NCBI GenBank assembly: GCA_016707425.1
Contig: JADJHU010000018.1
Span: 11,980 to 75,979, forward strand
Source of the DNA: Gammaproteobacteria bacterium
Lineage (GTDB): Bacteria; Pseudomonadota; Gammaproteobacteria; Steroidobacterales; Steroidobacteraceae
Length of the DNA stretch: 64,000 nucleotides
Direction of reading: 5' to 3'
This document shows, in pieces, positions 32,164-55,229 of this stretch. Position 1 is the stretch's first letter; every line of letters begins with the position of its first letter. Under the pieces are notes generated by a model. It did not search any database and was not told the origin of the DNA. It saw only the letters and a list, made by a program, of their open reading frames with translations. The position numbers and the translations under genes were made by a program.

Positions 32164-32592
32164 GTGAATGTCGCTCAGGAAACCATCGTCGCGGGCTTTT
32201 TCGAGGCCATCGCGAACGCCGACCGCGAGACGATGCTTGCGCTCATGGACCCGGAAGCACAGTGGGTCGTCCCGAGAACGGCCGTCGCCCCCTATGCTGG
32301 CCGCCATCGAGGTGCGGCGAAAATCGTCGACATGATGCTGCAGGCGACGACGGCGACGTTCCTTCCGGGCACGGTCCGGCACCGCGTGCTGACGCAGATG
32401 AGCGACGCGAGTCGCGTGATGGCGGAAACGGAAATGGTGGCGCGGCAGACCGGCGGCTGCGAATACCGCAATTTCTATGTATTCATCTTCGAATTTCGGG
32501 ACGGCCGGATCTGCGAGATCCGGGAACACGTGGACACCGCCTACGCCATTCAGTTCTTTGGCGCAGGCCAGCAGGCGACGGAGGCACCATGA
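32164..32592 (+). CDS. NTF2/SnoaL-like (ketosteroid-isomerase-like) protein
   Basis: GTG at 32164 (VNVAQETIVAGFFEAIANADRETMLALMDPEAQW...). FIFEFRDGRICEIREHVD is the typical C-terminal strand pair. Confidence 0.7.
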   Translation: MNVAQETIVAGFFEAIANADRETMLALMDPEAQWVVPRTAVAPYAGRHRGAAKIVDMMLQATTATFLPGTVRHRVLTQMSDASRVMAETEMVARQTGGCEYRNFYVFIFEFRDGRICEIREHVDTAYAIQFFGAGQQATEAP

Positions 32593-33920
32593 ATATGGAT
32601 CGAAGAGGCCGCCCGGACGAGGCGGGGACAAATGCGACACCCACCACTTCCCGCCGGACCGTGCTCGAGGCCGGCGGCGTGCTGGGTGCACTGGCGGCCC
32701 TGGCAGGCGGGGCGTCGCCGGCGTTCGCGCAGGCGAGCGGGGGATCCTCGGACGCGCAGATGCTGAAGGCCTTCGACGCTTTCCTCGCGACGCTGCGGAG
32801 ATCGGCGGAGATCGGCTTCGCCCAGAGCGCGTCGCGCCGCCCCTACGATCGCGCGGCGGGGCTGCGGCACATTCTCGACAACCTCTCCCTCGGTCTGTCC
32901 TTCCTTCTGCACAACGCCGACGGGATGCATCCGGAACTGCTCCACTATTTCGATCCCCAGCGCAAGCAGGGTGGAGACAACCAGGATGCGCTCTACGTAG
33001 GCGCGAATCTCGATGGCTCCCAGACGTACCGCCTCCACGGTGATCGGGGCACCGCCCGATTCTTTGCGATCACGGTGGTCGAGAAGGGGCCGACCCCTTT
33101 TGGGGGGCGTTCGAGCGCCTATCTCTTCGGCCACGATATGAAGGTCGAGCCGGACGGCCGCTTCGAGGTGGTCCTGAGCCCCAGGCCTCATCCAGGCAAC
33201 TGGCTCGAACTCGGGCCGAACACACTGCGGGTCACGGTGCGACAGTTCTTCGCGGACTGGGAGAACGAGCGCCCGATGCGCGCCATGATCGAGCGGGTCG
33301 GTCCTCCGGTTCCGCCACCGCTGATCACGGCCGAGACGGTGATGGCGGCGCTCGAGTCCACCGGGGCCTGGATCGAGAGCACCGTGAGCTTCTGGCAGAA
33401 GATGATCGGAATCTTCGCCCGCAAGCCGAACACCTTCCAGCGGTGGCGTGACCTCGACACGACCAAGGTCGACGCGACGCCGGGCGGGGATCCCTGGAAC
33501 TGCTACTGGAGTGTGCCGGAGGACTCGGCGCTCATCGTGCGCGTGCGCCCGCCTCAGTGCAGGTTCTGGAATCTCGAGTTCAACAACCCCTGGTGGGAGA
33601 CCCACGACTACCGGTACCGGCTCTCCGGCACGAACGTGCATCACGCGGTGCTCGAGGAGGATGGGGAACTCATCGCCGTTGTCGCACATGACGACCCGGG
33701 TCTTCCGAACTGGCTCGATCCCGGCGGCTTCACGGAAGGAATGATGGGCATGCGCTGGATGTTCGCCGACACCAGACCTCAGCCGCAGTGCACGCTGGTG
33801 AAGCGCTCGGCGCTCGAGGGGGCATTGCCCGGGAAGATCAGGCGAATCACGCCCGAGCAGCGGCAGGGGCAGCTCGCGGCACGCCACCGCGGGATCTACA
33901 ACCGCTTCGGCTGGATGTGA
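32589..33920 (+). CDS. Unplaced family protein DUFx-1 (Tat-exported)
   Basis: ATGA overlap with the upstream NTF2 gene. Twin-arginine leader TSRRTVLEAGGVLGALAALAGGASPAFAQ. Paralogous to 36161, 40485 and 51519. Confidence 0.75.
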   Translation: MNMDRRGRPDEAGTNATPTTSRRTVLEAGGVLGALAALAGGASPAFAQASGGSSDAQMLKAFDAFLATLRRSAEIGFAQSASRRPYDRAAGLRHILDNLSLGLSFLLHNADGMHPELLHYFDPQRKQGGDNQDALYVGANLDGSQTYRLHGDRGTARFFAITVVEKGPTPFGGRSSAYLFGHDMKVEPDGRFEVVLSPRPHPGNWLELGPNTLRVTVRQFFADWENERPMRAMIERVGPPVPPPLITAETVMAALESTGAWIESTVSFWQKMIGIFARKPNTFQRWRDLDTTKVDATPGGDPWNCYWSVPEDSALIVRVRPPQCRFWNLEFNNPWWETHDYRYRLSGTNVHHAVLEEDGELIAVVAHDDPGLPNWLDPGGFTEGMMGMRWMFADTRPQPQCTLVKRSALEGALPGKIRRITPEQRQGQLAARHRGIYNRFGWM

Positions 33921-33942
33921 TGCAACTCCGACAGACAGGAAT

Positions 33943-36150
33943 ATGGAATCAATGAACAGAACTCTCGTATCGACCCTGCTCGGCCCCGTAGCGCTGGCGC
34001 TTGCCCATGCTGCATCCGGGCAGGCCCCGGGCGACCCGCCGGGGGAAACCACAGGACTCCAGGAAATCGTCGTGACCGCGCAGAAGCGCGAGCAGAATCT
34101 CCAGGACGTGCCGATCGCGATCTCGGCAATCGCCCCCGATTACATCGAGAAGCACCAGATCACGACGATCACGAGCCTGACCAGCCTCGCTCCCAACCTC
34201 AAGATCGATCCCGCCGGGGCCAATCAGACGACCTCGACGATCGCCATCCGGGGCAATGTCCAGGGAAACCCGCAGCTCTACTTCGAACCTTCGGTCGGCC
34301 TGTATCTCGATGGTGTTTACATCGGCAAGGCTCAGGGTTCGATCTTCGATGTCGCGGACATCGAGAGAATCGAGGTGCTCCGCGGACCGCAGGGCACGCT
34401 CTACGGGCGCAATACCGTCGGCGGCGCCGTAAACATCATCGCGAAGAAGCCGAGCGGGGAGGGGGGGAAGGTCGAAGCGTCCTACGGAAACTTCGACTAC
34501 TGGCGCGTCCGGGGGTCGCTCGATCTGCCGCGCTTCGGCTTCTTCAGTGCCAAGCTCTCCGGGCAGATGGCCGAGCGCGCCGGCTTCTACGATGTGGCCG
34601 GCAACCCCGCGACCGACGAGGCACAGACGCTCGACAGCAAGAGCGTCATGCTGCAGCTGCGGGCGGAGCCGACCGAGGCGCTGGTCCTGGATTACGTGTT
34701 CGACCTGAGCGTGGTGGATCAGCAGGCCGGCTACGGCGCTCCGATCAGCGGCGTGGGCACTCTTGCGCCCTACGTGTTTCCGCGGAAGCGGCCGGAGAAC
34801 GTGAGCTTCAACAGCCCGAATTATGAGTATGCCCGCAATCACGGGCATGCACTCACGGCGGCTCTGCGATTCGGGGATGCCGCCACACTGAAGTCGATCA
34901 CCGCCTATCGCGAGCAGACCTACCACGATGCGCTCGATCTCGATGGTTCGCCGCTTTCACTGGGCTTGTCGTCGCGAGACACGCGTTATCGGCAACTCAG
35001 CCAGGAGTTTCAGCTCTCGGGGCGGGCGGCGCGGCTGAACTATGTCGCGGGGCTCTACTATTTCGAAGACGATGGCTTCGTGTTCAACCCGCAGTCCTTT
35101 TTCAATGGGTTCTCGCGTGTGGATTCGCGCTTTGGATTCACGACCAGGGCGTATGCAGCCTACGCACAGGGTGACTACGAGCTGACCGATTCGCTTACGC
35201 TTACGGCGGGTCTGCGCTACACGGACGAGAGGAAGACCATCGAGCGCTATTTCGCACGCCTCGCTCCGGTGCAGGCGGTCGTGATCAATCTGCCCGATGG
35301 CGCGGCGCCGGATGCGAGCTTCTCCAAGCTGTCGCCAACGGCGACGCTCGCTTACAAGATCAATCCGGACGTGAATGTCTATGCACGCTACGCGCAGGGC
35401 TACCGCAGCGGTGGCTTCAACGGAGTTTCCACAACCGTGGCGGATGTCCTGACACAGTTCCAGCCGCAGACACAGAACAGCTATGAGATCGGGCTGAAGT
35501 CCAGGCTGTTCGACAACCATGCGACGCTCAACGTGGCCGCGTTCTGGGATGAGTCGAAGGACCTGCAGCTCTCGGTGTTCCGCGCCGTCACCTCGGCGGC
35601 CAGCACCGTGGTCAATGCCGGTGCCGCACGCGTTCGCGGGATCGAGATTGAGGCCGGCGCGCGGCCGGTCGAATCCCTGTTCCTGCAGGCGGCGTTCGGC
35701 TATCTCGATGCCGAATACAAGCGGTACATCGACGCGGGCGTGGATGTCGCGGACAACCGCTCTTTTCCGTATGCCCCGAAGTACAGCTTCTCGACGAGCG
35801 TGCAGTGGACGGCGTTGCAGCGTGATTTCGGCAAGCTCGACCTGATCGTCGATCTCAGCAGGCTCTCCGGCTACTACCAGTCCGCCGCCGCACTTCGGCC
35901 GGCCAGCCCCACGGAGATCGATGCGCACAACACGCACAGCCCCGGACGCACGATGCTCGATGCGCGGGCGATCCTGAGCGAGTTCCCGATGGGTGGACTC
36001 AAGGGAGAGCTGTCGCTCTGGGGCCGGAATCTCCTGAACGAGGACGACCCGCAGTTCTTCATTGACTTCGGGGCCAATTTCCAGCGTCTCGCCGTCGCTT
36101 ACTTTCCGGACCCTCGTACCTACGGGATGACCTTGAGCGTGCGTTTCTGA
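33943..36150 (+). CDS. TonB-dependent receptor (TBDR2)
   Basis: 735 aa. Signal peptide, LQEIVVTAQKREQNLQDVPIAISAI, IEVLRGPQGTLYGRNT, and C-terminal ...PRTYGMTLSVRF. Confidence 0.9.
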   Translation: MESMNRTLVSTLLGPVALALAHAASGQAPGDPPGETTGLQEIVVTAQKREQNLQDVPIAISAIAPDYIEKHQITTITSLTSLAPNLKIDPAGANQTTSTIAIRGNVQGNPQLYFEPSVGLYLDGVYIGKAQGSIFDVADIERIEVLRGPQGTLYGRNTVGGAVNIIAKKPSGEGGKVEASYGNFDYWRVRGSLDLPRFGFFSAKLSGQMAERAGFYDVAGNPATDEAQTLDSKSVMLQLRAEPTEALVLDYVFDLSVVDQQAGYGAPISGVGTLAPYVFPRKRPENVSFNSPNYEYARNHGHALTAALRFGDAATLKSITAYREQTYHDALDLDGSPLSLGLSSRDTRYRQLSQEFQLSGRAARLNYVAGLYYFEDDGFVFNPQSFFNGFSRVDSRFGFTTRAYAAYAQGDYELTDSLTLTAGLRYTDERKTIERYFARLAPVQAVVINLPDGAAPDASFSKLSPTATLAYKINPDVNVYARYAQGYRSGGFNGVSTTVADVLTQFQPQTQNSYEIGLKSRLFDNHATLNVAAFWDESKDLQLSVFRAVTSAASTVVNAGAARVRGIEIEAGARPVESLFLQAAFGYLDAEYKRYIDAGVDVADNRSFPYAPKYSFSTSVQWTALQRDFGKLDLIVDLSRLSGYYQSAAALRPASPTEIDAHNTHSPGRTMLDARAILSEFPMGGLKGELSLWGRNLLNEDDPQFFIDFGANFQRLAVAYFPDPRTYGMTLSVRF

Positions 36151-36160
36151 GGAACCTCTC

Positions 36161-37525
36161 ATGATCAGGCGAATGAGGGTGAGCGACCGCCACGTGAGGA
36201 GCCGGGTCGCCGCCCTGGCTGCGCTGATCGCTGTTGCGGCGAGCTCGCAACCGTTGGCGGCTGCGAGTGGCTCTGTGCTGGCCACGAAGGAACAGCTTGC
36301 GGGCGAGGCCCTCGCCCTGCGTGTACTGGCGAGTGCGCCGATGCGCAGACAGATCGAGGTACTGGAGGAGACGTATCGGCAGGACGCGCAGGGATCGACT
36401 CCAGCCGGCGGGGCGACGATCCGGCGGGCGGCGGATTCGGTGGCGGCTGCCGCGGCGTATTATGCGGTGATCGACGACGCGGACCGCCCGGTCTTTCTGT
36501 GGATTGGCAATGCCCCACATCGCTGGTTCGGGATCGAGGCACCGCGCGCAGGCTTCGGCATCGAGAATCCCGACAATGTCTACCGCGAGACGACCGTCGA
36601 CAGCGGGGCGCGATACGAGATCCGCGGCCGGGTGCGGCATCCGGGCCCGGCCGAACTGCACTTCGTGGTGATGGACTCGATTCCGGGGACGACGCCTGTA
36701 AGCGTCGAGGGTGGGCAGATACTCACGACGCTGCGCAGCGATGGGATGAAGATTGCCCCGGACGGCTCGTTCACTGTCACCGTGGATCGCGATCCGGCCG
36801 GCGGCCGCTCCAATCACCTCCAGCTGCCGCGCGAGGGCAAGTACCCGCTGCTCGTACGGGACCTGCTCACGGACTGGACCACACAGAAGCCCGTGGCCCT
36901 CGAGATTCGTCGCGTTGCGGGCCCAGCCCTCGCGCGGCCCCGGACCGAGGCCGAGGTGGCCCGGCGCGCCGCGGAGCTGCTGTCGCTGATCGGACCGTAC
37001 TGGGTAGCCTACGACAACCGCTTCGTCTATTCGAAGCCCCGCAATCAGGTCGCTGCGCCTCGTCATCGGCCCGGCGGCCGGGGCTTCTCCAGCAGTGGTC
37101 ATTTCGAGCTCGGCAGCGATGAGGCGCTCGTCGTGACGGTCGATCCACTCGGGGCCCGATCGCTCGGCTTTCAGCTCACCGACCCATGGGGGGTGGCTCT
37201 GGAGTACATCGGGCGGACGAGCAGTCTCAACAATGCCCAGGCGGCGGCGAACCCGGATGGCACGATCACGTTCGTCGTGACGGCCAGCGATCCGGGGGTC
37301 TACAACTGGCTCGACACCGATGCACTTGGATCGGGGATGTTCGCGATCCGCTGGCAGGCGCTGCCCGAGGGTACGAGCGGTGAACGGGCGGTGCGTGACG
37401 CACGAGTCGTGAAGCGCACGCAGCTGGAGGAGGCGCTGCCGGCGGGAACGAGATTCGTCACGCCCGCGCAACGGCGCGCGCAACAGGCCGCGCGGGCACG
37501 GGGCTATGCGCGGCGGCTCGAATGA
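36161..37525 (+). CDS. Unplaced family protein DUFx-2 (Sec-type leader, divergent copy)
   Basis: 454 aa. Leader RVAALAALIAVAASSQPLAAAS. Shares DEALVVTV, DPGVYNWLD, IRW and VTPAQR blocks with the other copies. Confidence 0.7.
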   Translation: MIRRMRVSDRHVRSRVAALAALIAVAASSQPLAAASGSVLATKEQLAGEALALRVLASAPMRRQIEVLEETYRQDAQGSTPAGGATIRRAADSVAAAAAYYAVIDDADRPVFLWIGNAPHRWFGIEAPRAGFGIENPDNVYRETTVDSGARYEIRGRVRHPGPAELHFVVMDSIPGTTPVSVEGGQILTTLRSDGMKIAPDGSFTVTVDRDPAGGRSNHLQLPREGKYPLLVRDLLTDWTTQKPVALEIRRVAGPALARPRTEAEVARRAAELLSLIGPYWVAYDNRFVYSKPRNQVAAPRHRPGGRGFSSSGHFELGSDEALVVTVDPLGARSLGFQLTDPWGVALEYIGRTSSLNNAQAAANPDGTITFVVTASDPGVYNWLDTDALGSGMFAIRWQALPEGTSGERAVRDARVVKRTQLEEALPAGTRFVTPAQRRAQQAARARGYARRLE

Positions 37526-37609
37526 GGCCGGGGTCGCAGGGCTGGTGAGCCGGGGCCGCGGGCGGTGTGGCTGCTATGATCCAGCACGCTCCATGGATGT
37601 CGCCTGCCA

Positions 37610-38213
37610 ATGACCTGCCCGAAGCCACCGACTGCCCGCACGCTGCAGCGCCAGGATACTTTCAGCCGCGTCTACGAGGCGGCGCTGAGCGAGTTCAGGA
37701 GGGTCGGGGTCGAGCAGGCGACCGTGAGCGAGATCTGCCGGCGGGCCGGCGTTGCCAAGGGCACGTTCTTTTTTCATTTCCCCACGAAGGATCACGTGCT
37801 GCTGGCAAGACAGCAGCGGATCTCGGAGGCGATGGCAGAGAGGATCAGTGCGGAGCTCCAGGACGTTCCCGACGCGCGGGCGTTCCTGCAGCGCCTGACC
37901 AAAATCGTCATGGAGGAGCATCAGGCTGTCGGCGATGTCGAGCTCGTGCGCCAGATCAACCTGGCTATCGTCCGCCTGGGGGGTCCCGCGGCTCGGCGTG
38001 GGACACACCGCCTTTGGCGTGGCGCTTGCGAGACAGATCGGCCGGCTCCAGCGGGAGGGAGTGATCCGCTCGGGTGTGAATGCGGCGAGACTCGCCGACT
38101 GCCTGCGGCTCAGCTTCTTCGGGTTTCTGCTCAATCCTCAGTCCTCCTTCGAGACGAGCCGCCGGCAGCTCGCGCTCCTGACGAAACTCCTGGCCGAGGC
38201 TCTCGTCACCTGA
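37610..38213 (+). pseudogene. TetR/AcrR family regulator, +1 frameshift at or near a G6 run (37978-37983)
   Basis: The N-terminal HTH (FSRVYEAALSEFRRVGVEQATVSEICRRAGVAKGTFFFHFPTKDHVL) is in the frame of track ORF 37610. A plausible helical C-terminus (HTAFGVALARQIGRLQREGVIRSGVNAARLADCLRLSFFGFLLNP...) is in the frame of track ORF 37935. The in-frame tail of ORF 37610 is Arg/Pro/Gly junk. Confidence 0.7.
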
Positions 38214-38263
38214 GCCATCCGAAACTCATTGACCGCGGTCAGTCAAGCGCATAGGATGCCCGC

Positions 38264-39439
38264 ATGGACTTCGAGTTCTCTCGTGACGAGCAGTCCTTCC
38301 TGCGGGAGGTGGATGGATTCCTCAGGGCGAACCACGATCCGCGGGTGATGGATCCCGGTCGGGAGAATCTGGCACAGCTGGTGGATACGCCTGAGCGGCG
38401 TACCTTCATGAAGCGACTGGCGGGGCAGGGCTGGCTCGGCATCACCTGGCCGAAGGAGCTCGGCGGCCAGGGCGGGCGGGGATTCTACGAATACCTGCTG
38501 AACGAGAAACTTTCCTCGGTCGGTGCGCCACAGCTCGGCAAGGGCACAGGCGTGGTCGGGAAGACTCTCATCAAAGTCGCGTCGGGGAAACTGGCGGGAG
38601 TTCTCCCCAGGATCCTGAATGCCGAGATCGAATTCGCCATCGGCTACTTCGAGCCGTCGGCCGGCTCGATGCGGCCGCCATGCGTCTCGGCCGAGCGCGC
38701 GGGCGAAGGTTGGGTGCTGAACGGGCAAAAGGTCTTCACGACCTCGGCGCACTTCGCGGACTGGTATTGGGTGGGGGCTCGCACCGATCCGGATGCGCCG
38801 AAGCACCACGGCATTTCGCTCTTTCTGGTATCCATGGACCATCCAGGACTCACGATCCACCCGATGCATACCATCGGTGGTGAACGGACGAATGCGGTCT
38901 TCTTCGACGATGTCTTCGTGCATGACGATTACCGGGTCGGGGAACTGAACAAGGGGTTCCAGTACATTGCCGAAGCGCTCGACCTGGAGCGCTTCGGCAT
39001 GTTCACCTTCTCGCCGATCCGCGCGCGCGTCGAGCTGCTGTGTGATTTCGTGAAGAGCGGACAGCGCGACGGCAAATCCCTGAAGGACGACGCGATCATC
39101 CGGCAGAGAGTGGCTCAGCTCGCGACCGAGTGCGAAGTGGCGCGTCTTCTCGGTGTGCGCTTCGTCGATGCGGCACTCGATGCGAACAGGACGCCCACCA
39201 TCCAGGCGTCCGAGTACAAGCTCTACGCGACGGAATTTTCCCGCCGTCTGGCCGATGCGACGATGGAGATCGTGGGCGTCGGCAGCCAGCTGCTGGCCGG
39301 CGCACCGGACGCGCCGCTCTCGGGTCGTGCTCCGGGCAGCTATACGCTCACGGTGCTCGAGACGATCGGTGGAGGCACCTCCGAGGTGCAGAAGAACATC
39401 ATTGCGACGCGCAAGCATGGCTTGCCGAAGAATTTCTGA
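38264..39439 (+). CDS. Acyl-CoA dehydrogenase family protein
   Basis: 391 aa. GWLGITWPKELGGQG, LNGQKVFTTSA and ETIGGGTSEVQKNIIA. A short out-of-frame-looking patch is described under findings. Confidence 0.85.
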   Translation: MDFEFSRDEQSFLREVDGFLRANHDPRVMDPGRENLAQLVDTPERRTFMKRLAGQGWLGITWPKELGGQGGRGFYEYLLNEKLSSVGAPQLGKGTGVVGKTLIKVASGKLAGVLPRILNAEIEFAIGYFEPSAGSMRPPCVSAERAGEGWVLNGQKVFTTSAHFADWYWVGARTDPDAPKHHGISLFLVSMDHPGLTIHPMHTIGGERTNAVFFDDVFVHDDYRVGELNKGFQYIAEALDLERFGMFTFSPIRARVELLCDFVKSGQRDGKSLKDDAIIRQRVAQLATECEVARLLGVRFVDAALDANRTPTIQASEYKLYATEFSRRLADATMEIVGVGSQLLAGAPDAPLSGRAPGSYTLTVLETIGGGTSEVQKNIIATRKHGLPKNF

Positions 39440-39462
39440 CTCACAGGAGTGTCGATCCAGCC

Positions 39463-40488
39463 ATGAAGGTCTACACCACGGCCCCCCTCGAGGACCCGCG
39501 TCAGGCACGTACGATCTATCCGGAGCTCGAGAGGATCGGTTACGACGGAGTGTTCTCCTTCGAGGCGAAGCACGATCCCTTCGTGCCGCTGGCCGTCGCC
39601 GCCGAGCACACGCAGAAGCTGCGCCTCGGCACGGGCATCGCGATTGCCTTTGCCCGGAATCCCATGAACCTCGCCAATCTGGGCTACGACCTGCAGTCGA
39701 TCACCGGCGGGCGCTTCGTGCTCGGGCTCGGCTCCCAGGTGAAGCCTCACATCGAGAAGCGGTTCAGCTCCGTGTGGTCGCATCCGGCCGAGCGCATGCG
39801 CGAGATCGTGCTCGCCATCAAGGCGATCTGGAGCTGCTGGGAGGGTCGGTCAGAGCTGAACTTCCGCGGCCGGTTCTACACGCACACGATCATGATCCCG
39901 GCCTTCAATCCGGGACCCAATCCCTTCGGGCCGCCGCCCATTCTCACCGGTGGATTCGGCCCGATGATGACCGCCGTGGCCGGTGAGGCGGCCGACGGCT
40001 TCATTGCCCATCCCTTCAATACCCGGCGCTCGCTTCTCGAGAACACGCTGCCGGCGCTCGAGGCGGGACTCGCGAAATCCGGGCGCCAGCGCGCCGACCT
40101 CGAGGTGATCTGCGCGACGCTCGTGGTCACTGCCGCAACCGAGGAGGCGCTCGAAGCCTCAAAGCTCGCCGCACGCAAGCAGCTCGCCTTCTATGGATCG
40201 ACGCCCGCCTATCGACCGACGCTGGCCTGCCACGGGTGGGAAGGCATTCACGGGGAACTGAACCGCCTGTCGAAGGCCGGACGCTGGGACGACATGACGA
40301 GTCTCATCACCGATGACATCCTGAACGAGATCGCGGTGGTCGGCGAACCACACACCATTGCCACGAAGCTGCAGGCGCGCCTCGAGGGGATCGCGGACGG
40401 GGTCAGTCTCACGCACAACCGGTGCCCGGATCCGGGCCATTGGGCCGGTGTCGTCCAGGATCTCAGGAAGCATCGGAAGCCGCGATGA
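39463..40488 (+). CDS. Luciferase-like (LLM) oxidoreductase, probably F420-dependent (MSMEG_2256-like)
   Basis: Start trimmed to MKVYTTAPLED.... ERIGYDGVFSFEAKHDPF, GRFVLGLGSQVKPHIEKRF and EAADGFIAHPF. Confidence 0.8.
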   Translation: MKVYTTAPLEDPRQARTIYPELERIGYDGVFSFEAKHDPFVPLAVAAEHTQKLRLGTGIAIAFARNPMNLANLGYDLQSITGGRFVLGLGSQVKPHIEKRFSSVWSHPAERMREIVLAIKAIWSCWEGRSELNFRGRFYTHTIMIPAFNPGPNPFGPPPILTGGFGPMMTAVAGEAADGFIAHPFNTRRSLLENTLPALEAGLAKSGRQRADLEVICATLVVTAATEEALEASKLAARKQLAFYGSTPAYRPTLACHGWEGIHGELNRLSKAGRWDDMTSLITDDILNEIAVVGEPHTIATKLQARLEGIADGVSLTHNRCPDPGHWAGVVQDLRKHRKPR

Positions 40489-41672
40489 GCGACGATCATG
40501 AGAGAGTACTTCGGCGTGCGTGGGAGAGCTTCTGCGACGAGCTGAAGCGCGCGGTGGATATTCCGCTCCGCGCGCCCGTCCCGGCGCAGGTCGCGACGCG
40601 TGCCGCGGGCTTCGAAGCGCTGGCGCGCAACATCTCTCTTGCACTGAATTTCCATCACGACTACGCGGATCCCCGGTATCCCGAGCTGATTCACTACTTC
40701 GATCCCGTACGGAAGCAGGGCGGTGACAACACCGATGCGGTCTACGTCGGTGCGACCATCAATGGCACCGACACTTATCGGATCAGCGGCGATCGCGGTA
40801 CCGCGCGCTTCTTCGGGATCACTTCGGTCGAGCGCGGCCAGACGCCCTGGGGCGGCAAGGTCGCCCACACTCTTTTCGGCCGCGATCTCGAGGTCGGGCC
40901 GGACGGCTGCTTCGAACTCATTTGCAGCCCGACGCCGCATCCGGGCAACTGGCTGAGGACGACGCCTGAGACCTTCCGGATCACTTTTCGTCAGTTCTTC
41001 GCCGACTGGGAGCACGAACGGCCGATGAAGGCGCGCATCGACCGTCTGACGGGCGACATGAGCCCGCCGGCACCGATCACGCCCGAGAGGCTGGCCGAGC
41101 AGCTGCAGGCCTCGGCGCGATGGGTGGGAGAGTCGCTCGCGTTCTGGGTCCGCATGATCAACATGTGGAAGGTCATGCCGAACACCTTCCGGTCCTACAA
41201 GCAGCTCGCGGACCAGGCCATCGACGCCACGCCTGGCGGCGAACCGATGATTGCCTACTGGGCGCTGCCACCGGACGAAGCGCTGATCGTGCGTGTGCGC
41301 CCGCCCGCCTGTCCGTACTGGGCGGTCGAGTTCGGTAATTTCTGGTGGACGAGCATGGACTATCGCTACCGGCTCTCGAACACGAACTGTCATTATGCCG
41401 AGCTCGAGGACGACGGTGAGCTGATCGTGGTGATCGCCCACGAGGACCCTGGCCTGCCGAACTGGCTCGAGACATCGGGTTTCGCCGAAGGCTACGTCAC
41501 CTACCGCTGGATGCGGGCGGAGAGCTGCCCGGAGCCGAAGGCCACGCAGGTCAAGACGGCGGAGCTGTTCAGATACCTGCCGCAGAACGCCAGGCGCATC
41601 ACCCCGGAGGCGCGGTGCGAGCAGCTCGCGGCCCGTCGTCGTGGCGTCATCAACCGCTTCGGCAATCTCTGA
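40485..41672 (+). CDS. Unplaced family protein DUFx-3 (no leader, cytoplasmic copy)
   Basis: ATGA overlap with the LLM stop. MSDDHERVLRRAWESF... has no signal peptide. Closest paralogue of DUFx-1 (shared HYFDP, RKQGGDN, GDRGTARFF, PHPGNWL, RQFFADWE, ALIVRVRPP, DYRYRLS, DPGLPNWL, RRITPE). Confidence 0.75.
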   Translation: MSDDHERVLRRAWESFCDELKRAVDIPLRAPVPAQVATRAAGFEALARNISLALNFHHDYADPRYPELIHYFDPVRKQGGDNTDAVYVGATINGTDTYRISGDRGTARFFGITSVERGQTPWGGKVAHTLFGRDLEVGPDGCFELICSPTPHPGNWLRTTPETFRITFRQFFADWEHERPMKARIDRLTGDMSPPAPITPERLAEQLQASARWVGESLAFWVRMINMWKVMPNTFRSYKQLADQAIDATPGGEPMIAYWALPPDEALIVRVRPPACPYWAVEFGNFWWTSMDYRYRLSNTNCHYAELEDDGELIVVIAHEDPGLPNWLETSGFAEGYVTYRWMRAESCPEPKATQVKTAELFRYLPQNARRITPEARCEQLAARRRGVINRFGNL

Positions 41673-41692
41673 GGCCGCACGAGGAGAGGCGC

Positions 41693-42978: not shown

Positions 42979-43806
42979 ATGGATCTCGGACTGAAGGGCA
43001 AGACCGTCGTCATTACCGGCGGGAGCGGTGGGATCGGTCAGGGTCTGGTGATGGAGTTCGCACGCGAAGGGGCGAACGTGGTCTCTGCATCACGCGACAT
43101 GAAAGTAGGCGAGAAGCTTGCGGCCCTGGCGCGGGAACAGGGCTTCGCGGGCAGCGTGCTGCCGGTGTCGACCGATGTCACGAAGCGCGCGAGCGTGGAC
43201 GCCATGATCGCACAAGCGCAGCAGCGCTTCGGGCCTGTGGACGCGCTGGTCAACAACGCGGGGGGCGTCAAACGCAGCTGCGCCTTCGAGGAACTCGACG
43301 ACGAGACGCGCCGCTGGGAGCTCGCCCTTAATATCGATGGCGTCGTCAACTGCACACTCGCTGTCGCCCAGGACATGCTCTCGCGAGGCAGGGGGAGCGT
43401 CGTCAACATTTCCTCGAACTCCTCTCTTCTCGGGGAGGCAGCCCAGCAGGTGGTGCACTACGGCTCGACCAAGGGTTTCGTGAACAGTTTCTCGAAGGCG
43501 CTCGCCTACGAGTGGGGCCCAAAGGGCGTGCGCGTGAACACGATCGCCCCCGGCTGGATCGTGCCGCACCGGGACGAGGACATTTCGGCAGGCAGCTTCT
43601 GGAACCGGCTGGAATTCGTCGGCACACCCGAGGGGATGCAGAAGGCGCTCGAGGCCGGGACGCTGCCGAACATGAGCCATCTGCCGATCAAGCGGCTCGG
43701 GCGCCCCGAGGAGGTGGCCCATCTCGCCATGTTCCTCGCCTCCGAGATCTCGGGCTACATCACGGGTCAGCTGATTTCCATCAGTGGTGGGGTGTACATG
43801 CCATGA
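42979..43806 (+). CDS. SDR family oxidoreductase
   Basis: Start trimmed to MDLGLKGKTVVITGGSGGIGQG. NNAGG and YGSTKGF. Confidence 0.85.
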   Translation: MDLGLKGKTVVITGGSGGIGQGLVMEFAREGANVVSASRDMKVGEKLAALAREQGFAGSVLPVSTDVTKRASVDAMIAQAQQRFGPVDALVNNAGGVKRSCAFEELDDETRRWELALNIDGVVNCTLAVAQDMLSRGRGSVVNISSNSSLLGEAAQQVVHYGSTKGFVNSFSKALAYEWGPKGVRVNTIAPGWIVPHRDEDISAGSFWNRLEFVGTPEGMQKALEAGTLPNMSHLPIKRLGRPEEVAHLAMFLASEISGYITGQLISISGGVYMP

Positions 43807-44582
43807 GGACCGCGCCCATGAGTCTCGAGGGGCGCACCGCCATCGTCACCGGCGCAGGCTCGGGCATTGGGGCTGCGATCGCACGACGCCTGGCCGGAGC
43901 CGGCGCTCGAGTGATCGCGGCAGACATTCGGACCGAGGCCGTCGAGACACTGGCCGCCGGGACCCGGGAGGTCACGGCGTGCCGCTGTGATGTCACGCAT
44001 GCGGCCGAGGTCGATGCGCTGGTCGGGAGCGCCGTCGAGCGCTTTGGGCGGCTCGATGTGATGGTCAACAACGTCGGGCAGTCGATCGCCGGCTGGCTGA
44101 AGGATGCGACGGACGAGGAGTGGCAGCGGGTGCTCGCGCTGACGCTCTCCTCGGCGTTCTACGGCGTGCGCGCTGCGCTTCGCGTCATGCTGCCTCGGGG
44201 TTCCGGGAGCATCATCAATATTTCGTCGGGTGCAGGCTTTGGCGGCTCGCCGGGTCTTGCCACCTACGGGGCGGCGAAAGCCGGTGTCAACAATCTCACT
44301 CAGTCGGCGGCCGTGGAGAATGCCCGAAGCGGCGTACGCATCAATGCCATCTCGCCCGGAGCGATCGAGACACCTGCGATTCTTGCCTGGGCACGGAGCC
44401 TTCCGGGTGGAGTACCCGCCTATGAGGCGACGCTGCTGCCGGGGCGCTTCGGGAGGCCGGACGAGATTGCTGCGGCCGCACTCTTTCTCGCGTCCGACGA
44501 GGCGAGCTTCGTAAACGGCGCGGTGCTGCCGGTGGACGGGGCCGCATCCGCACGCATGCCGGCCATCGAGGTGCCCAAGTAG
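43803..44582 (+). CDS. SDR family oxidoreductase
   Basis: ATGA overlap with the upstream SDR. GRTAIVTGAGSGIGAAIA, NNVG, YGAAKAG and PGAIETP. Confidence 0.85.
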   Translation: MRTAPMSLEGRTAIVTGAGSGIGAAIARRLAGAGARVIAADIRTEAVETLAAGTREVTACRCDVTHAAEVDALVGSAVERFGRLDVMVNNVGQSIAGWLKDATDEEWQRVLALTLSSAFYGVRAALRVMLPRGSGSIINISSGAGFGGSPGLATYGAAKAGVNNLTQSAAVENARSGVRINAISPGAIETPAILAWARSLPGGVPAYEATLLPGRFGRPDEIAAAALFLASDEASFVNGAVLPVDGAASARMPAIEVPK

Positions 44583-44611
44583 CCGCGCGCCTCCAGTATG
44601 GCTGGGCCATC

Positions 44612-46029: not shown

Positions 46030-46041
46030 CCCCCCCCCCCC
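46030..46041. repeat. Homopolymer C12
   Basis: Counted directly in the sequence. Confidence 0.95.
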
Positions 46042-46127
46042 ACCCGATCCGGGTCCCGGCCTGTGCCCAAGCGACTTCGACCCCACAGCCCGCCCCACGC
46101 CGTCAGTTCCAGACCCCCCGCACGCAG

Positions 46128-46155
46128 CCCCCCCCCCCCCCCCCCCCCCCCCCCC
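46128..46155. repeat. Homopolymer C28
   Basis: Counted directly. The run ends 46 nt upstream of the CoA-transferase ATG (46202) and 35 nt upstream of its AGGAGG. Confidence 0.95.
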
Positions 46156-46201
46156 GTGCCGGAGACAGCATGGCGGCAGGCGCAACACGTAGGAGGCACT
46201 C

Positions 46202-47419: not shown

Positions 47420-47434
47420 CCGGAGAGGAACACC

Positions 47435-48307: not shown

Positions 48308-49077
48308 TGGCATGGTGGAACAGGTTCTCTCTCGAAGGCAGGACGGCGCTCGTGACGGGCGGCTCGCGTGGCATCGGCCGTGCCACGGCGGAGTTGCTGG
48401 CGCAGGCGGGTGCGCACGTGGTCGTCTCTTCCCGCAACGGCGCCGACCTGGACGAGGTGGTGAGAGGGATCCGGTCGGCGGGAGGGAAGGCGGAGGCCAT
48501 CCCTGCGCACATCGGGCGGATCGAGGACGTCGAGGCCCTGCTCGCCGAGCTCGAGCGCCGGGCGCTGCACGTCGACACCCTCGTGAACAATGCCGGCATC
48601 AGTCCACTCGTGAAGGAGCCCTTCTCTGGCACCTCGCTCGAGCTCTGGCAGAAGATCATGGACGTGAATCTGCGCGGGCCGTTTCTGCTCAGCGCGCGTC
48701 TCGGGCGCGCCATGGCTGCTCGCCGCTCGGGCTCGATCGTCAACATCAGTTCCACGGGAGCGTTGCGGACGAGCCCGCTCATCGGGGCCTACTGCGTCTC
48801 GAAGAGGGCGGTGAATACGCTCACCGAAGTGTTCGCCAAGGAATTCGGGACGCACGGCGTGCGGGTGAACACGATCAGCTGTGGTCTCGTCGAGACCGCC
48901 ATGGGTGACTGGACGATCAAGGACCAGAAGGCCTACGACTTCACACTGGGCATGACGCCGCTCGCGCGCCATGCCCAACCGGACGAGGTGGCCTATGCGG
49001 TGCTGTTCCTCGTCAGCGGCGCGGCGAGCTTCGTCACGGGCGCTAATCTCGCCGTGGACGGCGGGACGGGCATCTAG
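48304..49077 (+). CDS. SDR family oxidoreductase
   Basis: ATGA overlap with the upstream SDR. GRTALVTGGSRGIGRA, NNAG and YCVSKRA. Confidence 0.85.
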   Translation: MMAWWNRFSLEGRTALVTGGSRGIGRATAELLAQAGAHVVVSSRNGADLDEVVRGIRSAGGKAEAIPAHIGRIEDVEALLAELERRALHVDTLVNNAGISPLVKEPFSGTSLELWQKIMDVNLRGPFLLSARLGRAMAARRSGSIVNISSTGALRTSPLIGAYCVSKRAVNTLTEVFAKEFGTHGVRVNTISCGLVETAMGDWTIKDQKAYDFTLGMTPLARHAQPDEVAYAVLFLVSGAASFVTGANLAVDGGTGI

Positions 49078-51199
49078 ATCGCCGCGGCGACCTCCGCGGC
49101 GCTGCGCATCGCACCCTCGATGTAACTCACGCCGCGGCAGTCGCCGACCACGTGCACCGCGAAGCTCGCCGCGCGCAGCTGCTCCGCGAGCGCCAGGTCT
49201 CCGCTCGCGCCCTTGGCGACGATGACGTGATCAGCCAGGATCGCGGCACCCTGGCCTGCGGCATCCGTGAAGCGCACGCACTCGGCCTCGATGCGGATAT
49301 CGCTCGCGCCAGCACGCAATGTGACGCCGTGCTCTTCGAGCTCTTCGATGAGGCGCATACGTCGCACGATCGTGAGACCTGCTCCGAGTCGCGGGACGTC
49401 ATCGACCACTCCCACCGTGCGACCACGCTCGCTCAGGAACTCGGCCAGTTCGAGGCCGACGAGCTCGCCGCCGACGATGGCGATGCGCTTGCCGAGTGGC
49501 ATCCACTGGTGCGTCGCCCTGCGTACGAAGTCGAGGTTGGCCGTCATGCCGGTGGCGGCGCCGATCTTCGTCGCGAGCCGCGTCGTCCAGCCGGTCTTCT
49601 TCTCCAGGGCCTCCGAGCTCTCTCCCAGTACGAGTCGCCGCAGATCGTCGCCGCTGAAGACGTGAGGGAGATCACTGCCCGGGATCGGGGGCATGCTGCG
49701 ACGGGCGCCGGTTGCGACGACGACCGCATCTGCCGAGAGAGATCGCAGGAGTTCGGGCGTCGCAACCGTGCCGAGGCGTACTTCCACGTGCGAGGCTTCG
49801 ACCTGGCGCGCGAGCCAGTCGAGCAGCCGCTCGTTGGCAGCGTAAGCCAGTGCCGCGAAGCGGAGCGTTCCACCCAGCTGATCACCACGCTCGAGCAGCA
49901 CGACCTCGTGCCCGGCGCGATCGAGGCGGCGCGCTGCTTCCATGCCGCCGGGTCCGCCGCCCACGACCACCACGCGTTTGCGCGTCGCCGCGGCGGGCGG
50001 TGCCGGCCGGAGTGACTCGAAACACGTCTCGGGATTCACGGCGCAGCGCGCATGCTCCTGGATGTAGATTGCGCTGATACACGTATAGCAATAGATGCAG
50101 GGCAGAACATCCTGAGGGCGGCCTTCCTTCAGCTTCCTCGGGAGATGCGGGTCAGCGAGGAGTTTTCGACCCATCGCCACGAAGTCGATGGAGCCGTCGG
50201 CGATGCGCGCATCGCCCACTTCGGGCTCGACACGACCGGAGGCGATGACGGGAATACGGACTGCCGCCTTGATGGCCGCAGCAAAGGCAGGTTCACACCT
50301 GGCTCATGTGGAGTGTGCGAGGCGGAGTGGAGCTTTCCATGGTCCGTATCGTGGTAGGCCGTGACGGTGATCGCGTTCGCACCCGCGTCCTGGGCCATGC
50401 ACGCCGTGCGTTTCGCATCGTCGATGGTGATCCCGCCCTCCTTGCCGACCTCCCGGGAATCGAGCTTGCACCACATCGCAAAGTCGGGGCCGACCGCGGC
50501 GCGCACGGCGCGCAGCACCTCGAGAAGGAAGCGCACACGGTTCTCGAGGCTGCCGCCGTATTCGTCCGTGCGCCGGTTCGAGCGCGGTGAGACGAAAGAG
50601 GAGAGGAGGTAACCGTGGCCGCCGTGGACTTCGACGCCGTCGGCACCCGCACGCTTCGCGCGTACCGCGGCTGCTGCAAACTGATTCACGACGGTGCGGA
50701 TGTCGTCGGCCGTCATGACCCTGAAGTCCACGTTCCTGATCTGGGGTGCGGGTGACTTGGCGATCTCCTCGAGCAGCCACATGCTGCTGACGTCCCTCTT
50801 CGGCGGTTCGGGGAGTGAAGGCACCCAGAGCGGCCGCCCCGCCTTCATGTCTTCGGGTGCGACGAGACCACCGTGATGCAGCTGCAGCGAGAACTTCGCC
50901 CCGTGGCGGTGGATCGCTTCGGCCATCGCCGCGATTCCGGGGATGAAGCGGTCGTCGGAGATCGCGATCTGGCCCGGCTGATTTCCACCGGCCGGCCAGG
51001 CGACGCCTGCCACCCCCGTGTTCACCAGCGCCACGCCACCGCGAGCCTGCTCCTCGTGAAAGGCACGGATACGCTCGCCGCAGGTGCCATCGGGTTCGGC
51101 GAGATTGACGCCCATGGCGGTGACGATGATGCGGTTGCGGAGCTCGAGTGGCCCGATACGGCCGGGAGAGAGGAGGTGTGCGAAAGCTCCAGATGCCAT
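49074..51199 (-). pseudogene. Two-domain NADH:flavin oxidoreductase (OYE FMN domain + FAD/NAD(P) domain, 2,4-dienoyl-CoA reductase-like), split by a frameshift near 50290-50300
   Basis: N-terminal track ORF 50129..51199 (LRNRIIVTAMGVNL, LHHGG, EVHGGHGYLLSSF) decays into junk after ...HTPHEPGV. The expected continuation PAFAAAIKAAVRIPVIASGRVEPEVGDARIADGSIDFVAMGRKLLADP...CIYCYTC...VVVVGGGPGGMEAA is in the frame of track ORF 49074..50219. Confidence 0.75.
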
Positions 51200-51518
51200 G
51201 GCTCAGGCTCCGTGTCTTCGGTGGGTCCCGACCCGAAAATCCTGGCCGGGAGCGGGTGGCAGAAGGATACGCGGTCGGCGTCGACAGGCGCAAAATCTTC
51301 GCGCACGCGATCCCTGCCGCTGCCTGCGGATGGCCGGACTGGAAGAAATCGGCACTTTGCGCAGAGCCCTGATCGGGACTACTCTCAGCGTGACGCCAGC
51401 AATGTGATCGGCGCCGCGACGGAGGGCATGTTCGTGGAGACATTTGAGTGACGGGTGATGACAGGCGCCGGCGCGCGCCGCGCGCGGGACTCCGAAGGCT
51501 TCTGCCGCCAGCGGGCGC

Positions 51519-52856
51519 GTGGGGCGCAGGGAGCTGTTCAGTGCTGCGCTGGCAGGCGGCGCTGCGGCAATGTTGCCGTCGACATCGATGGCGGAAGTGG
51601 CGGGGAAGGCGGCAACGGCAGGCGGGCTGCCCGAGGGCCTCCTGTCCTGGGGGCAGTATCTCGATCTCCTGCGACCGGCTGGCGAGCTCGCGCGCATCAC
51701 GCTGGAGCCGGAAAGCGAGCAGCTTCGCGCGGAGCTCTACCGACAGCTGGCGATGAACCTGTCGTCGGGCTATTTCATGTATTTCCAGTCCGACGCCCGC
51801 TATCCGGACTGGATGCCGTTCCTGAACTCGGTCTTCACTCTGCAGCCGAATCCCGACGATACGTACTGGCTCGCGCATCTGGATGACAAGGGGACCTATC
51901 GCATCTCGGGCACGCGCGGGACGGTGCACATCCTGTCGTTCGTGCTGACGCCGCATCTGATGGGTGGCTCCGACGAGCTCGCCGAGTCTCTAAGCAAGGA
52001 ATCTGCCGGGAAGCCTGCGCAGCCGGCGAACAATGCGGGTTTCCATGATGTAAGCGAGCTCGCGCTCGGTGCCAACGGCGAGTTCGAGGTGCTGCTTTCC
52101 CGACGGCGCCCAGATGGCTACACGGGCGACTGGTGGCCCCTGGAGGCCGGCGTCTCGAGCATCATGGTGCGGCAGAGATCTTACGACTGGGGCAATGAGC
52201 GGGACGCGCGTTTCGCCATCGAGCGGGTGGATCCGATCGCACCCGATGCGCCGTTGAAGCCACGCATGAGTGCGGCGGAGATCGACCAGAGGCTGAGGCG
52301 ACTCCTGGGTGAGTACACGGCGCGGCTTTCGCGCATGTGGCTCACGTACCAGAAGAATGTCGTGGACCGCGGGATCGTCAACCGCTTCGAATTCACGGGC
52401 CTTGGGGGATCGCTGCCGGTGCAGGTGTACTGGCAGGGCATGTACGAGCTCGGACCGGAGGAGGCGCTGATCCTCGAGACCGACATGCCGAAGAAGCAGC
52501 GCTACTGGAACGTGCAGCTCAACGATGCCCTGTGGAATGCCACTGAGTTCATCTACCGCCAGAGCAGCCTGAATGGCCATCAGGCGCGGCTGGACGCGGA
52601 TGGCAGGTTCCGGGCGGTCATCTCGCTGCAGGATCCGGGCGTCTGGAACTGGCTCGATCCGGCCGGTTACCTCGAGGGCATGGTCATCGGGCGATGGTAC
52701 GAAGCGGACTCGCATCCCATGCCGACACTGACGCGAGTCCCGTTCGCGAAGGTGCGCGAGCATCTGCCGCCGGACACGGTCATGGTCACGCGTGAACAAC
52801 GCGCCGGACAGCTGCGCAAGCGGCGCATCGGCGGGCAACTGCGTCGGCGCTGGTGA
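51519..52856 (+). CDS. Unplaced family protein DUFx-4 (short RR leader, divergent copy)
   Basis: GTG start. GRRELFSAALAGGAAAMLPSTSMA leader. Shares EEALILET, DPGVWNWLDPAGYLEGMVIGRW and VTREQR blocks with the other copies. Confidence 0.7.
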   Translation: MGRRELFSAALAGGAAAMLPSTSMAEVAGKAATAGGLPEGLLSWGQYLDLLRPAGELARITLEPESEQLRAELYRQLAMNLSSGYFMYFQSDARYPDWMPFLNSVFTLQPNPDDTYWLAHLDDKGTYRISGTRGTVHILSFVLTPHLMGGSDELAESLSKESAGKPAQPANNAGFHDVSELALGANGEFEVLLSRRRPDGYTGDWWPLEAGVSSIMVRQRSYDWGNERDARFAIERVDPIAPDAPLKPRMSAAEIDQRLRRLLGEYTARLSRMWLTYQKNVVDRGIVNRFEFTGLGGSLPVQVYWQGMYELGPEEALILETDMPKKQRYWNVQLNDALWNATEFIYRQSSLNGHQARLDADGRFRAVISLQDPGVWNWLDPAGYLEGMVIGRWYEADSHPMPTLTRVPFAKVREHLPPDTVMVTREQRAGQLRKRRIGGQLRRRW

Positions 52857-55227: not shown

Positions 55228-55229
55228 GG

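Follow-up and report, generated by a model that had tools for sequence, protein, structure and literature searches.

Four genes in a 64,000-nucleotide stretch of a Steroidobacteraceae genome (assembly GCA_016707425.1, contig JADJHU010000018.1, positions 11,980 to 75,979; the whole stretch is referred to here as the window) are paralogues within the 6ANS-type branch of the DUF1214 superfamily, a known uncharacterized family. Across phyla, the core partner of these genes is a Sulfotransfer_3 sulfotransferase with motifs for binding 3'-phosphoadenosine 5'-phosphosulfate (PAPS), usually accompanied by a short-chain dehydrogenase/reductase (SDR). We are highly confident of both the family assignment and the sulfotransferase partnership. 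A catalytic role for the DUF1214 protein, in which the sulfate of a sulfate ester would be the leaving group, is put forward tentatively. The four genes are new members of their family, and what they add is the link to a sulfotransferase-SDR module that was previously unremarked, as far as literature searches reach. They are as follows.

32589-33920, + strand: copy 1 (c1), 443 amino acids (aa); DUF1214 protein of the 6ANS type with a putative twin-arginine translocation (Tat)-type leader, predicted periplasmic
36161-37525, + strand: copy 2 (c2), 454 aa; the most divergent DUF1214 paralogue of the four, with a Sec-type leader
40485-41672, + strand: copy 3 (c3), 395 aa; DUF1214 protein with no leader, predicted cytoplasmic, and a member of a DUF1214-sulfotransferase-SDR module
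51519-52856, + strand: copy 4 (c4), 445 aa counted from a GTG start; DUF1214 protein with a short Tat-like leader

Translation of the window confirmed that all four reading frames are open at these coordinates and lack internal stops. In an all-versus-all BLASTP comparison, c1 and c3 were 53% identical (E = 9e-153), c4 matched both c1 and c3 at E = 3e-44, and c2 matched c1, c3, and c4 at E = 7e-27, 4e-28, and 6e-21, respectively; the top score among shuffled-sequence controls (30 shuffles per pair) was 24 bits. An earlier note on this DNA, made by eye from the letters, had proposed that the four genes form one paralogous family, and this holds for every pair (E = 9e-153 to 6e-21), including the divergent c2 and c4 when aligned with c1 and c3 (E = 7e-27 to 3e-44). 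The framework motifs that it had picked out, DPGxxNWL, RW, and a basic tail, proved to be invariant columns in a MAFFT alignment. A fifth copy was not found when the whole 64-kb window was searched by tblastn.

The same note had regarded the family as unplaced, with only a faint resemblance to DUF1214. Neither view survived. All four copies score above the Pfam gathering threshold for DUF1214 (PF06742) of 25 bits (c1, 47; c2, 29.4; c3, 37; c4, 29), and NCBI already labels c3 and c4 in this way: c3 is 100% identical to a "DUF1214 domain-containing protein" from a gammaproteobacterial metagenome-assembled genome (MAG) (P0001), and a protein identical to c4 carries the same label (P0121, 428 aa). 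The closest relatives, at 84 to 85% identity, are from Steroidobacteraceae. No copy matched DUF1254 (PF06863) in Pfam at E ≤ 1, which places all four in a compact "6ANS-type" branch of the superfamily, named here for the structure with PDB code 6ANS. NCBIfam holds no model for the family, and neither Pfam nor NCBIfam detected a sulfatase (PF00884), metallo-beta-lactamase, or Alkyl_sulf_dimr domain in any copy. A search with a profile built from the four copies against 1.84 billion representative sequences recovered 4,452 clusters (50% identity) at E ≤ 1e-3 and 1,268 at E ≤ 1e-30.

Structural comparison gave the same placement. By phmmer, c1 matched 6ANS over residues 62 to 411 (E = 1.4e-47), and the four-copy profile matched it over its full length (E = 7.5e-78). 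We modeled the fold of c3 with AlphaFold2 (61 input sequences; predicted local distance difference test [pLDDT] of 90.9, predicted template modeling [pTM] score of 0.88). The model contains two repeat units, each made up of a helical hairpin and a β-sandwich, followed by a C-terminal helix, and by Foldseek it superposes on 6ANS with a template modeling (TM) score of 0.86 to 0.93 at 31% identity. By extension from c3, each copy is predicted to consist of two such tandem repeats ending in a basic helix. The 6ANS protein of Burkholderia cenocepacia, deposited in 2017 by the Seattle Structural Genomics Center for Infectious Disease as a "putative uncharacterized protein," shares this full-length two-repeat architecture but is too short to include the basic C-terminal helix (RRITPExR...RRRG) conserved in all four window copies. 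The next-best structures were the DUF1254+DUF1214 proteins VPA0735 (2P3Y and 3VB9) and VPA0106 (3U07) of Vibrio parahaemolyticus. These have the DUF1214 β-sandwich in common with the c3 model (Foldseek E of about 1e-10 to 3e-11, probability 1.0) but superpose on it only partly (TM score of 0.39 to 0.48, root mean square deviation of about 10 Å), and like the window copies they have no assigned function. Indeed, all matches of the c3 model in the PDB were uncharacterized structural-genomics proteins, and none had a defined function. Likewise, no functional study of DUF1214, DUF1254, 6ANS, VPA0735, 2P3Y, 3VB9, or 3U07 was found in the searchable literature. The earlier note could not assign a function to the family, and no experimentally defined one was found here in the literature or among the structural matches.

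We examined gene neighborhoods in 164 loci, comprising 80 from species-representative genomes, 80 from metagenomes, and further loci around individual homologues. The 80 loci in each collection were those most similar to c1 or c2, which is not a random sample of the family, and they were searched with the window proteins. Since c3 itself and P0001 had no exact match in the contig index, genomic context was taken from orthologue loci. Sulfotransfer_3 was the commonest immediate neighbor of DUF1214, usually with an SDR gene. In species-representative genomes, a Sulfotransfer_3-like gene lay within 2 kb of 56 of the 69 DUF1214 genes with full flanks, and the density of such genes was 75 per 348 kb near DUF1214 versus 2 per 705 kb beyond 4 kb. 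In metagenome contigs, a Sulfotransfer_3-like gene lay near 14 of 29 DUF1214 genes (32 per 241 kb near versus 1 per 181 kb away). The two genes of a pair are on the same strand in 99 of 104 cases, with a median gap of 96 nucleotides (nt). Their divergence from the respective window copies is correlated (Spearman coefficient of 0.81), which fits long co-inheritance, a correlation that shared phylogeny alone would also produce. A Pfam census of immediate same-strand neighbors, which is independent of the window proteins, also placed Sulfotransfer_3 first (34/143 upstream and 43/133 downstream), with SDR next and then TetR regulators, luciferase-like oxidoreductases (LLM), and TonB-dependent receptors (TBDRs); acyl-CoA dehydrogenases (ACAD), CoA-transferases, old yellow enzymes (OYE), and P450s were also among the neighbors in the window or the census.

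DUF1214-sulfotransferase pairs occur in Halieaceae, Steroidobacteraceae, Thauera, sphingomonads, Myxococcota, and Acidimicrobiia and, further, in Longimicrobiales, Thermoanaerobaculia, Spirochaetales, Cupriavidus, Blastococcus, and Tsukamurella. The association is strong for c3-like genes: a sulfotransferase gene lies no more than 2.5 kb from 60 of these 73 genes, many of them lie beside an SDR gene 64 to 84% identical to the first SDR gene of the window module, and the order TetR-ACAD-LLM-DUF1214-sulfotransferase-SDR is repeated at 81 to 89% identity in two Steroidobacteraceae loci (L001 and L002). Among c1 orthologues, a TBDR gene is next downstream in three of four. The order c1-TBDR-c2 recurs in Sphingomonas laterariae (L006), where the TBDR is 67% identical and in the same position, and Croceicoccus estronivorus has a sulfatase-c1-TBDR-DUF3604-PpiC arrangement. 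Genes resembling c2 and c4 are found with TBDRs, tandem DUF1214 paralogues, and occasional sulfatases, and TBDR genes flank exported copies in L004, L005, L006, L045, L085, L090, and L097. We also asked whether the family as a whole is associated with sulfatases and rejected this idea because each sample held only one or two cases. Other genomes do show a conserved neighborhood, and of the TBDR, sulfatase, and sulfotransferase modules that the earlier note described, the sulfotransferase link is general, the TBDR link is confined to a few loci of the exported clades, and the sulfatase link is rare. No study of the DUF1214-Sulfotransfer_3 pairing was found by title or abstract in a literature search on PF13469/Sulfotransfer_3.

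A second, divergent DUF1214-sulfotransferase pair lies a few kilobases from the first in L001/L002 (1682-4969) and in the Halieaceae loci L011, L012, L013, L015, L019, and L053, and some second DUF1214 genes are flanked by two sulfotransferase genes. The occurrence of second pairs in many genomes points beyond duplication of the DUF1214 gene alone, and duplication of the whole module seems to be common.

Natural fusions link DUF1214 to the same partners. The 963-aa protein P0346 joins an SRPBCC domain, a Sulfotransfer_3 domain, and a DUF1214 domain; the sulfotransferase segment of this protein and the window sulfotransferase share 40% identity (E = 2e-96). In P0342, DUF1214 is followed by a SnoaL_2 domain that is 48% identical to the NTF2-like SnoaL protein encoded immediately upstream of c1. 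A leader, SnoaL_4, and DUF1214 make up P0147 (about 590 aa, Pfam scan), and precomputed domains assign the same Pfam families to P0158 and P0183, which are also about 590 aa and have a similar N terminus. Single fusion sequences could be gene-calling artifacts; the SnoaL fusion recurs in several clusters. On sphingomonad megaplasmids, DUF1214 genes overlap NTF2-family genes according to RefSeq annotation. A tblastn search with the window SnoaL protein found few NTF2 neighbors; NTF2 proteins are too divergent for such a test, so the SnoaL link rests on the fusions and a few annotated loci. Two other architectures were observed: P0258 has an N-terminal multipass membrane domain and a c4-like DUF1214 domain, and P0253 has a DUF3108-like N-terminal domain followed by DUF1214. 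Their domain content suggests membrane-tethered or outer-membrane-associated variants.

The copies differ in their export signals. The c1 leader reads TSRRTVLEAGG...AFA-QA, and its (F/L)SRR motif is kept in all four c1 orthologues examined (L004, L005, L006, and L045). The c4 leader (RRELFSAALAGG; RRELFS...SMA-EV) is short, whereas the c4 orthologues P0122 to P0126, P0128, P0134, P0168, and P0231 have full, longer Tat-like leaders with the RR pair. An in-frame TGA at 51459-51461 leaves just MG ahead of the c4 RR, a two-residue n-region, and the start chosen by NCBI (P0121, Met18, 428 aa) is later than the GTG and removes the leader. In the region 51457-51570, the sequence ahead of the c4 start still resembles the n-region of a leader, which makes an upstream indel or sequencing error possible. 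Sec-type leaders are present on c2 and most of its relatives, whereas c3 and its 393- to 398-aa orthologues have none. Profile models for Tat signals gave subthreshold results (for c1, Pfam TAT_signal scored 17.6 bits against a cutoff of 22.7, and TIGR01409 was not significant), and the localization calls therefore rest on the motifs and their conservation. On this basis, c1, c2, and c4 are predicted to be exported by Tat, Sec, and Tat, respectively, and c3 is predicted to be cytoplasmic. These predictions agree with the earlier suggestion that the copies carry different export signals and that the family occurs on both sides of the inner membrane. Inspection of other N termini in the window indicated signal peptides for the sulfatases and the DUF3604 protein and none for SnoaL, LLM, the sulfotransferase, or the SDRs.

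The genes directly associated with the four copies are listed below.

32104-32592, + strand: SnoaL_2 (NTF2-like) protein; Pfam SnoaL_2 E = 9e-13; translational coupling with c1; start uncertain and no leader seen
33943-36150, + strand: TBDR between c1 and c2; Pfam Plug and TonB_dep_Rec_b-barrel
37610-38254, + strand: TetR regulator (Pfam), at the head of the c3 operon
38264-39439, + strand: ACAD (Pfam), after TetR in the c3 operon
39463-40488, + strand: LLM, an F420-type luciferase-like oxidoreductase; Pfam Bac_luciferase; NCBIfam TIGR03617 at 456 bits, above the cutoff
41693-42952, + strand: Sulfotransfer_3 sulfotransferase; Pfam E = 6e-32; starts 20 nt after c3
42985-43806, + strand: SDR1; Pfam adh_short; conserved third member of the module
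43803-44582, + strand: SDR2; Pfam adh_short
52864-57557, + strand: sulfatase 1 and sulfatase 2 (PF00884), 787 and 777 aa; Pfam E = 1e-59 and 2e-63; signal peptides; directly downstream of c4

From about 28 to 58 kb, the gene order is DUF3604 (- strand), an APH-family kinase directly upstream of the SnoaL-c1 pair, SnoaL, c1, TBDR, and c2; then TetR, ACAD, LLM, c3, Sulfotransfer_3, SDR, and SDR; then a major facilitator superfamily (MFS) transporter, a family III CoA-transferase, two SDRs, and a split OYE/Pyr_redox gene (- strand); and finally c4, the two sulfatases, and a PpiC-type rotamase. The junctions described earlier were all found in the sequence: the stop of SnoaL overlaps the start of c1 as ATGA, with GGAGG upstream; the stop of LLM overlaps the start of c3 in the same way; 10 nt separate the TBDR stop from the c2 start; and 7 nt separate the c4 stop from the ATG of the sulfatase 1 signal peptide. 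As had been claimed, no copy stands alone and each lies within an operon-like module. Only c3 belongs to a DUF1214-SDR-Sulfotransfer_3 module; c1, c2, and c4 lie outside such a module. The SDR1 stop may overlap the SDR2 ATG as ATGA (43803-43806), with an alternative ATG at 43818, and the listed sulfatase 2 reading frame (first start codon at 55224) overlaps the sulfatase 1 stop by 4 nt (55224-55227). The window sulfotransferase keeps both PAPS-binding motifs (QPRSGTSIL and HRDPIVTRAS) and is only distantly related to the mycobacterial-type sulfotransferases in the PDB, 2Z6V (E = 4e-41) and 2ZQ5 (E = 1e-37), which we take to be Stf9 and Stf1, respectively; the PDB label of 2ZQ5 is "putative uncharacterized protein."

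Upstream of this region, at 13352-26950, the window carries another block of genes related to sulfate esters.

13352-14413, - strand: OYE
14420-15061, - strand: SnoaL_4
15058-18033, - strand: third sulfatase-family gene, 61% identical to sulfatase 2
18690-20654, - strand: pyrroloquinoline quinone (PQQ) alcohol dehydrogenase
21147-22013, - strand: additional LLM
22084-23361, + strand: SdsA1-like metallo-beta-lactamase alkylsulfatase
24760-25674, + strand: additional SDR
25613-26950, + strand: second Sulfotransfer_3 gene, with no adjacent DUF1214 gene

Together with the genes around c1 to c4, this block makes sulfate esters the focus of the island in both compartments. Genes for glycoside hydrolases, polysaccharide lyases, or sugar metabolism were absent from the window and from the neighbor census. 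The combination of MFS, family III CoA-transferase, SDR, OYE plus Pyr_redox, and SnoaL recalls steroid and bile acid pathways such as the bai operon, which provides a lead. The OYE (Oxidored_FMN) plus Pyr_redox_2 gene between the SDRs and c4, of the 2,4-dienoyl-CoA reductase/BaiCD type (49074-51199, - strand), is split into two overlapping reading frames, with profile positions 2 to 267 in 50129-51199 and positions 311 to 341 plus the Pyr_redox domain in 49074-50219; this is probably a frameshift, i.e., a pseudogene or a MAG assembly error. Two more TBDRs (about 5196-7319 and about 61956-63893) are 32 to 34% identical to the TBDR between c1 and c2 and lie in stretches of lower GC content (0.60 to 0.63 versus about 0.67). 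At 8094-12568 (- strand), a DnaE2-like error-prone polymerase (DNA_pol3_alpha, 1,063 aa) sits beside an ImuB-like IMS-family gene, the usual SOS mutagenesis cassette, which is unrelated to the DUF1214 genes. Finally, when 10 kb of the window was compared with plasmids by megablast, the only matches were two short TBDR-related ones, so the window is not a known plasmid.

Several loci connect the module to steroids and to PAPS metabolism. In Tsukamurella tyrosinosolvens (L170, NZ_LR134464.1, 4001-11003), an operon encoding a 388-aa hypothetical protein, an SDR, and a sulfotransferase is divergent from a helix-turn-helix (HTH) regulator and from the PAPS-synthesis genes cysD and cysC (adenylyl-sulfate kinase). 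The 388-aa protein is 27 to 31% identical to the window copies, and the sulfotransferase matches 2ZQ5 at E = 1.9e-171. The record is labeled "plasmid 22"; it carries purL and is therefore probably a chromosome fragment. In Novosphingobium aromaticivorans pNL2 (L172, 107-9056), genes for an SDR and a TonB receptor precede the DUF1214 gene, CysQ (a phosphatase for PAP, 3'-phosphoadenosine 5'-phosphate) lies within about 5 kb upstream, and a gene that NCBI names "FadD3 family acyl-CoA ligase" lies further up, hinting at removal of the sulfation by-product and degradation of steroid rings C and D in one locus. KshA_C-type Rieske genes flank the DUF1214-sulfotransferase pair in Sphingobium, the c1 orthologue of C. 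estronivorus is beside a sulfatase and a TBDR, and homologues also occur in Thauera terpenica. Compounds resembling steroids or lipids, and not glycans, appear to be the substrate class.

In Mycobacterium tuberculosis, Rv3531c (hypothetical), Rv3530c (oxidoreductase), and Rv3529c (Stf1) lie together in the cholesterol cluster. Their promoter has a KstR operator and binds KstR in electrophoretic mobility shift assays, the M. smegmatis orthologue is derepressed sixfold in a kstR mutant, and growth on cholesterol is recorded as requiring one gene of the set. As listed, the three genes agree in order and annotation with the arrangement in Halieaceae and Tsukamurella, and the steroid-catabolic context and TetR-family control are likewise held in common. 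We infer from this synteny through Tsukamurella, rather than from sequence, that Rv3531c is a 6ANS-type DUF1214 protein, and a DUF1214-sulfotransferase-SDR module is probably part of the mycobacterial cholesterol regulon. We know of no exported, TBDR- or sulfatase-linked copies in mycobacteria. No mycobacterial protein was among the matches listed in a homologue search from the Blastococcus homologue, no mycobacterial member was found in cluster look-ups of ten 364- to 377-aa representatives, and the supplements of PMC6429209 contain no domain information on Rv3531c.

What the DUF1214 protein contributes can be approached through its conserved residues. In c3 numbering, D84, Y87, Y98, R169, D174, N301, D321, N326, and R341 each reach a conservation of 91% or more across 140 diverse members, exported and cytoplasmic copies included. 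From the presence of the same polar residues in both compartments, it would follow that the protein cannot require PAPS, NAD(P)H, CoA, or ATP. The one thing common to a sulfotransferase and a sulfatase is the sulfate ester R-O-SO3- with the alcohol from which it is formed. This is the most economical candidate for the ligand, and the DUF1214 protein is proposed to recognize a hydrophobic, steroid-like alcohol in its sulfated form. If its role is catalytic, sulfate would leave by elimination or hydrolysis through the DUF1214 protein. In the cytoplasm, the SDR would provide oxidation, the sulfotransferase activation, and the DUF1214 protein sulfate release, so that overall a hydroxyl would be lost. 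The exported copies, together with the sulfatases, would use sulfate esters that have been imported, in the case of c1 possibly in concert with SnoaL. Such activate-then-eliminate chemistry has precedents. The sulfotransferase-thioesterase of CurM in curacin biosynthesis turns a hydroxyl into a sulfate leaving group that is removed by a partner domain, and the 25-hydroxysteroid kinase and lyase of Sterolibacterium turn a hydroxyl into a phosphate leaving group that is removed by a partner enzyme; the window also has its APH-family kinase upstream of SnoaL-c1. The likeness is a mechanistic analogy only; the CurM thioesterase and the Sterolibacterium lyase have no sequence or fold relationship to DUF1214. 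Two further roles were considered and rejected: a SusD-like role, because c2, with its Sec-type leader, lacks a lipoprotein cysteine and has no SusD-family Pfam match, and a PAP-phosphatase role, because the periplasmic copies keep the same conserved residues.

Several observations weigh against sulfate-ester processing. No lyase or hydrolase appears among the Foldseek matches of the c3 model, so that catalysis by the DUF1214 protein is wholly hypothetical. Clusters of P450, SDR, enoyl-CoA hydratase (ECH), and ACAD genes that contain neither sulfotransferase nor sulfatase are home to many relatives in the c4 clade, which are about 390 aa long and lack a leader; what the family does in common may thus be directed at the hydrophobic skeleton and not at the sulfate group. 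Sulfatase neighbors are rare beyond the window (1 to 2 cases per sample), and the loci sampled were the 80 per collection closest to c1 or c2. As for the mycobacterial connection, the 388-aa Tsukamurella protein scores 22.3 bits on Pfam DUF1214, just below the cutoff, and the equation of Rv3531c with DUF1214 rests on synteny via that organism.

The main rival reading, which we hold just as tentatively as the catalytic one, is a noncatalytic binding or adaptor protein. Here, the β-sandwiches would bind a hydrophobic alcohol or its sulfate ester, presenting it to the sulfotransferase in the cytoplasm and, in the periplasm, taking it over from the TonB receptor for delivery to the sulfatases or a transporter in the inner membrane; the protein might also serve small NTF2-like enzymes as a scaffold. 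A β-sandwich fold that has no catalytic structural relatives, a family present in both compartments without a compartment-specific cofactor, and exported copies that flank TBDRs here and in the seven loci named above would all suit such a protein, and the fusions and tight coupling to the sulfotransferase and SnoaL fit a subunit role. However, about a dozen Asp, Asn, Arg, and Tyr residues conserved at 91% or more among the 140 members look more like an active site or a polar-ligand site than a greasy pocket. In addition, P0346 already has an SRPBCC domain for hydrophobic ligands, which would make a second binding domain partly redundant, and most members are cytoplasmic and lie inside enzyme operons.

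It is also conceivable, and in our view doubtful, that DUF1214 is an enzyme that needs no cofactor and works on the carbon skeleton of intermediates resembling steroids or terpenoids (an isomerase, a hydratase or dehydratase, or a ring-opening hydrolase), with sulfation as a side branch. The conserved polar residues would serve such an enzyme, and c4-clade relatives do occur in P450, SDR, ECH, ACAD, LuxC, and Rieske clusters without sulfur genes; the Sphingobium herbicidovorans copy is found among NTF2, alcohol dehydrogenase (ADH), ACAD, thiolase, and MaoC genes, and the Prescottella homologue follows a Rieske gene. Left unexplained are the position of Sulfotransfer_3 as by far the commonest neighbor across phyla, the P0346 fusion, and the nearby genes for PAPS synthesis and PAP removal. 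Least probable, to the point of being hard to credit, is a carbohydrate-active jelly roll (a glycoside hydrolase [GH] or lectin), as proposed speculatively from a model of a Malassezia PF06742 protein with a glycosyl-hydrolase-like jelly roll (PMC4634964): TBDRs and sulfatases do occur in glycan utilization loci too, but Foldseek gave no confident match of the c3 model to a GH or a carbohydrate-binding module (the sole GH-related entry, 6QEP, had E = 1e-2 and a TM score of <0.2), the Pfam hit to GH78_N was at chance level (E = 0.095), the genes in the window and the census are those of SDR, ACAD, LLM, CoA-transferase, OYE, P450, and TetR proteins rather than of glycan metabolism, and the major clade is cytoplasmic.

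Returning to sulfate-ester processing, its most far-reaching form would make 6ANS-type DUF1214 proteins a new class of cofactor-independent sulfate-ester-processing enzymes that, in partnership with an SDR and Stf1-type sulfotransferases, remove sulfate-activated hydroxyls in bacterial steroid catabolism, including the Rv3531c-Rv3529c operon, with exported paralogues carrying out this reaction beside TonB receptors on steroid or alkyl sulfates that have been imported. We regard this full version as improbable.

The sizeable DUF1214 family is represented by three sets of crystal structures and has had no function assigned to it. The earlier note had named the four genes a candidate for an undescribed functional component, and much of that description stands, as the family is multicopy, has no assigned function, and is predicted to occupy two compartments; it was, however, already in Pfam as DUF1214. 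The present data turn this label into a testable hypothesis, since one branch is nearly always found beside a Stf1/Stf9-like sulfotransferase, is fused to it in some genomes, and recurs in steroid degradation clusters. The window itself is unusually rich in sulfate-ester genes, with products predicted on either side of the inner membrane. If the synteny link to Rv3531c-Rv3529c is true, the hypothesis bears on M. tuberculosis cholesterol-regulon genes that have been unassigned since 2007. It would also explain the presence of cytoplasmic sulfotransferases in catabolic islands. The sulfatases and the alkylsulfatase of the window are separate genes, and a DUF1214 protein that removes sulfate would represent a novel type of enzyme.

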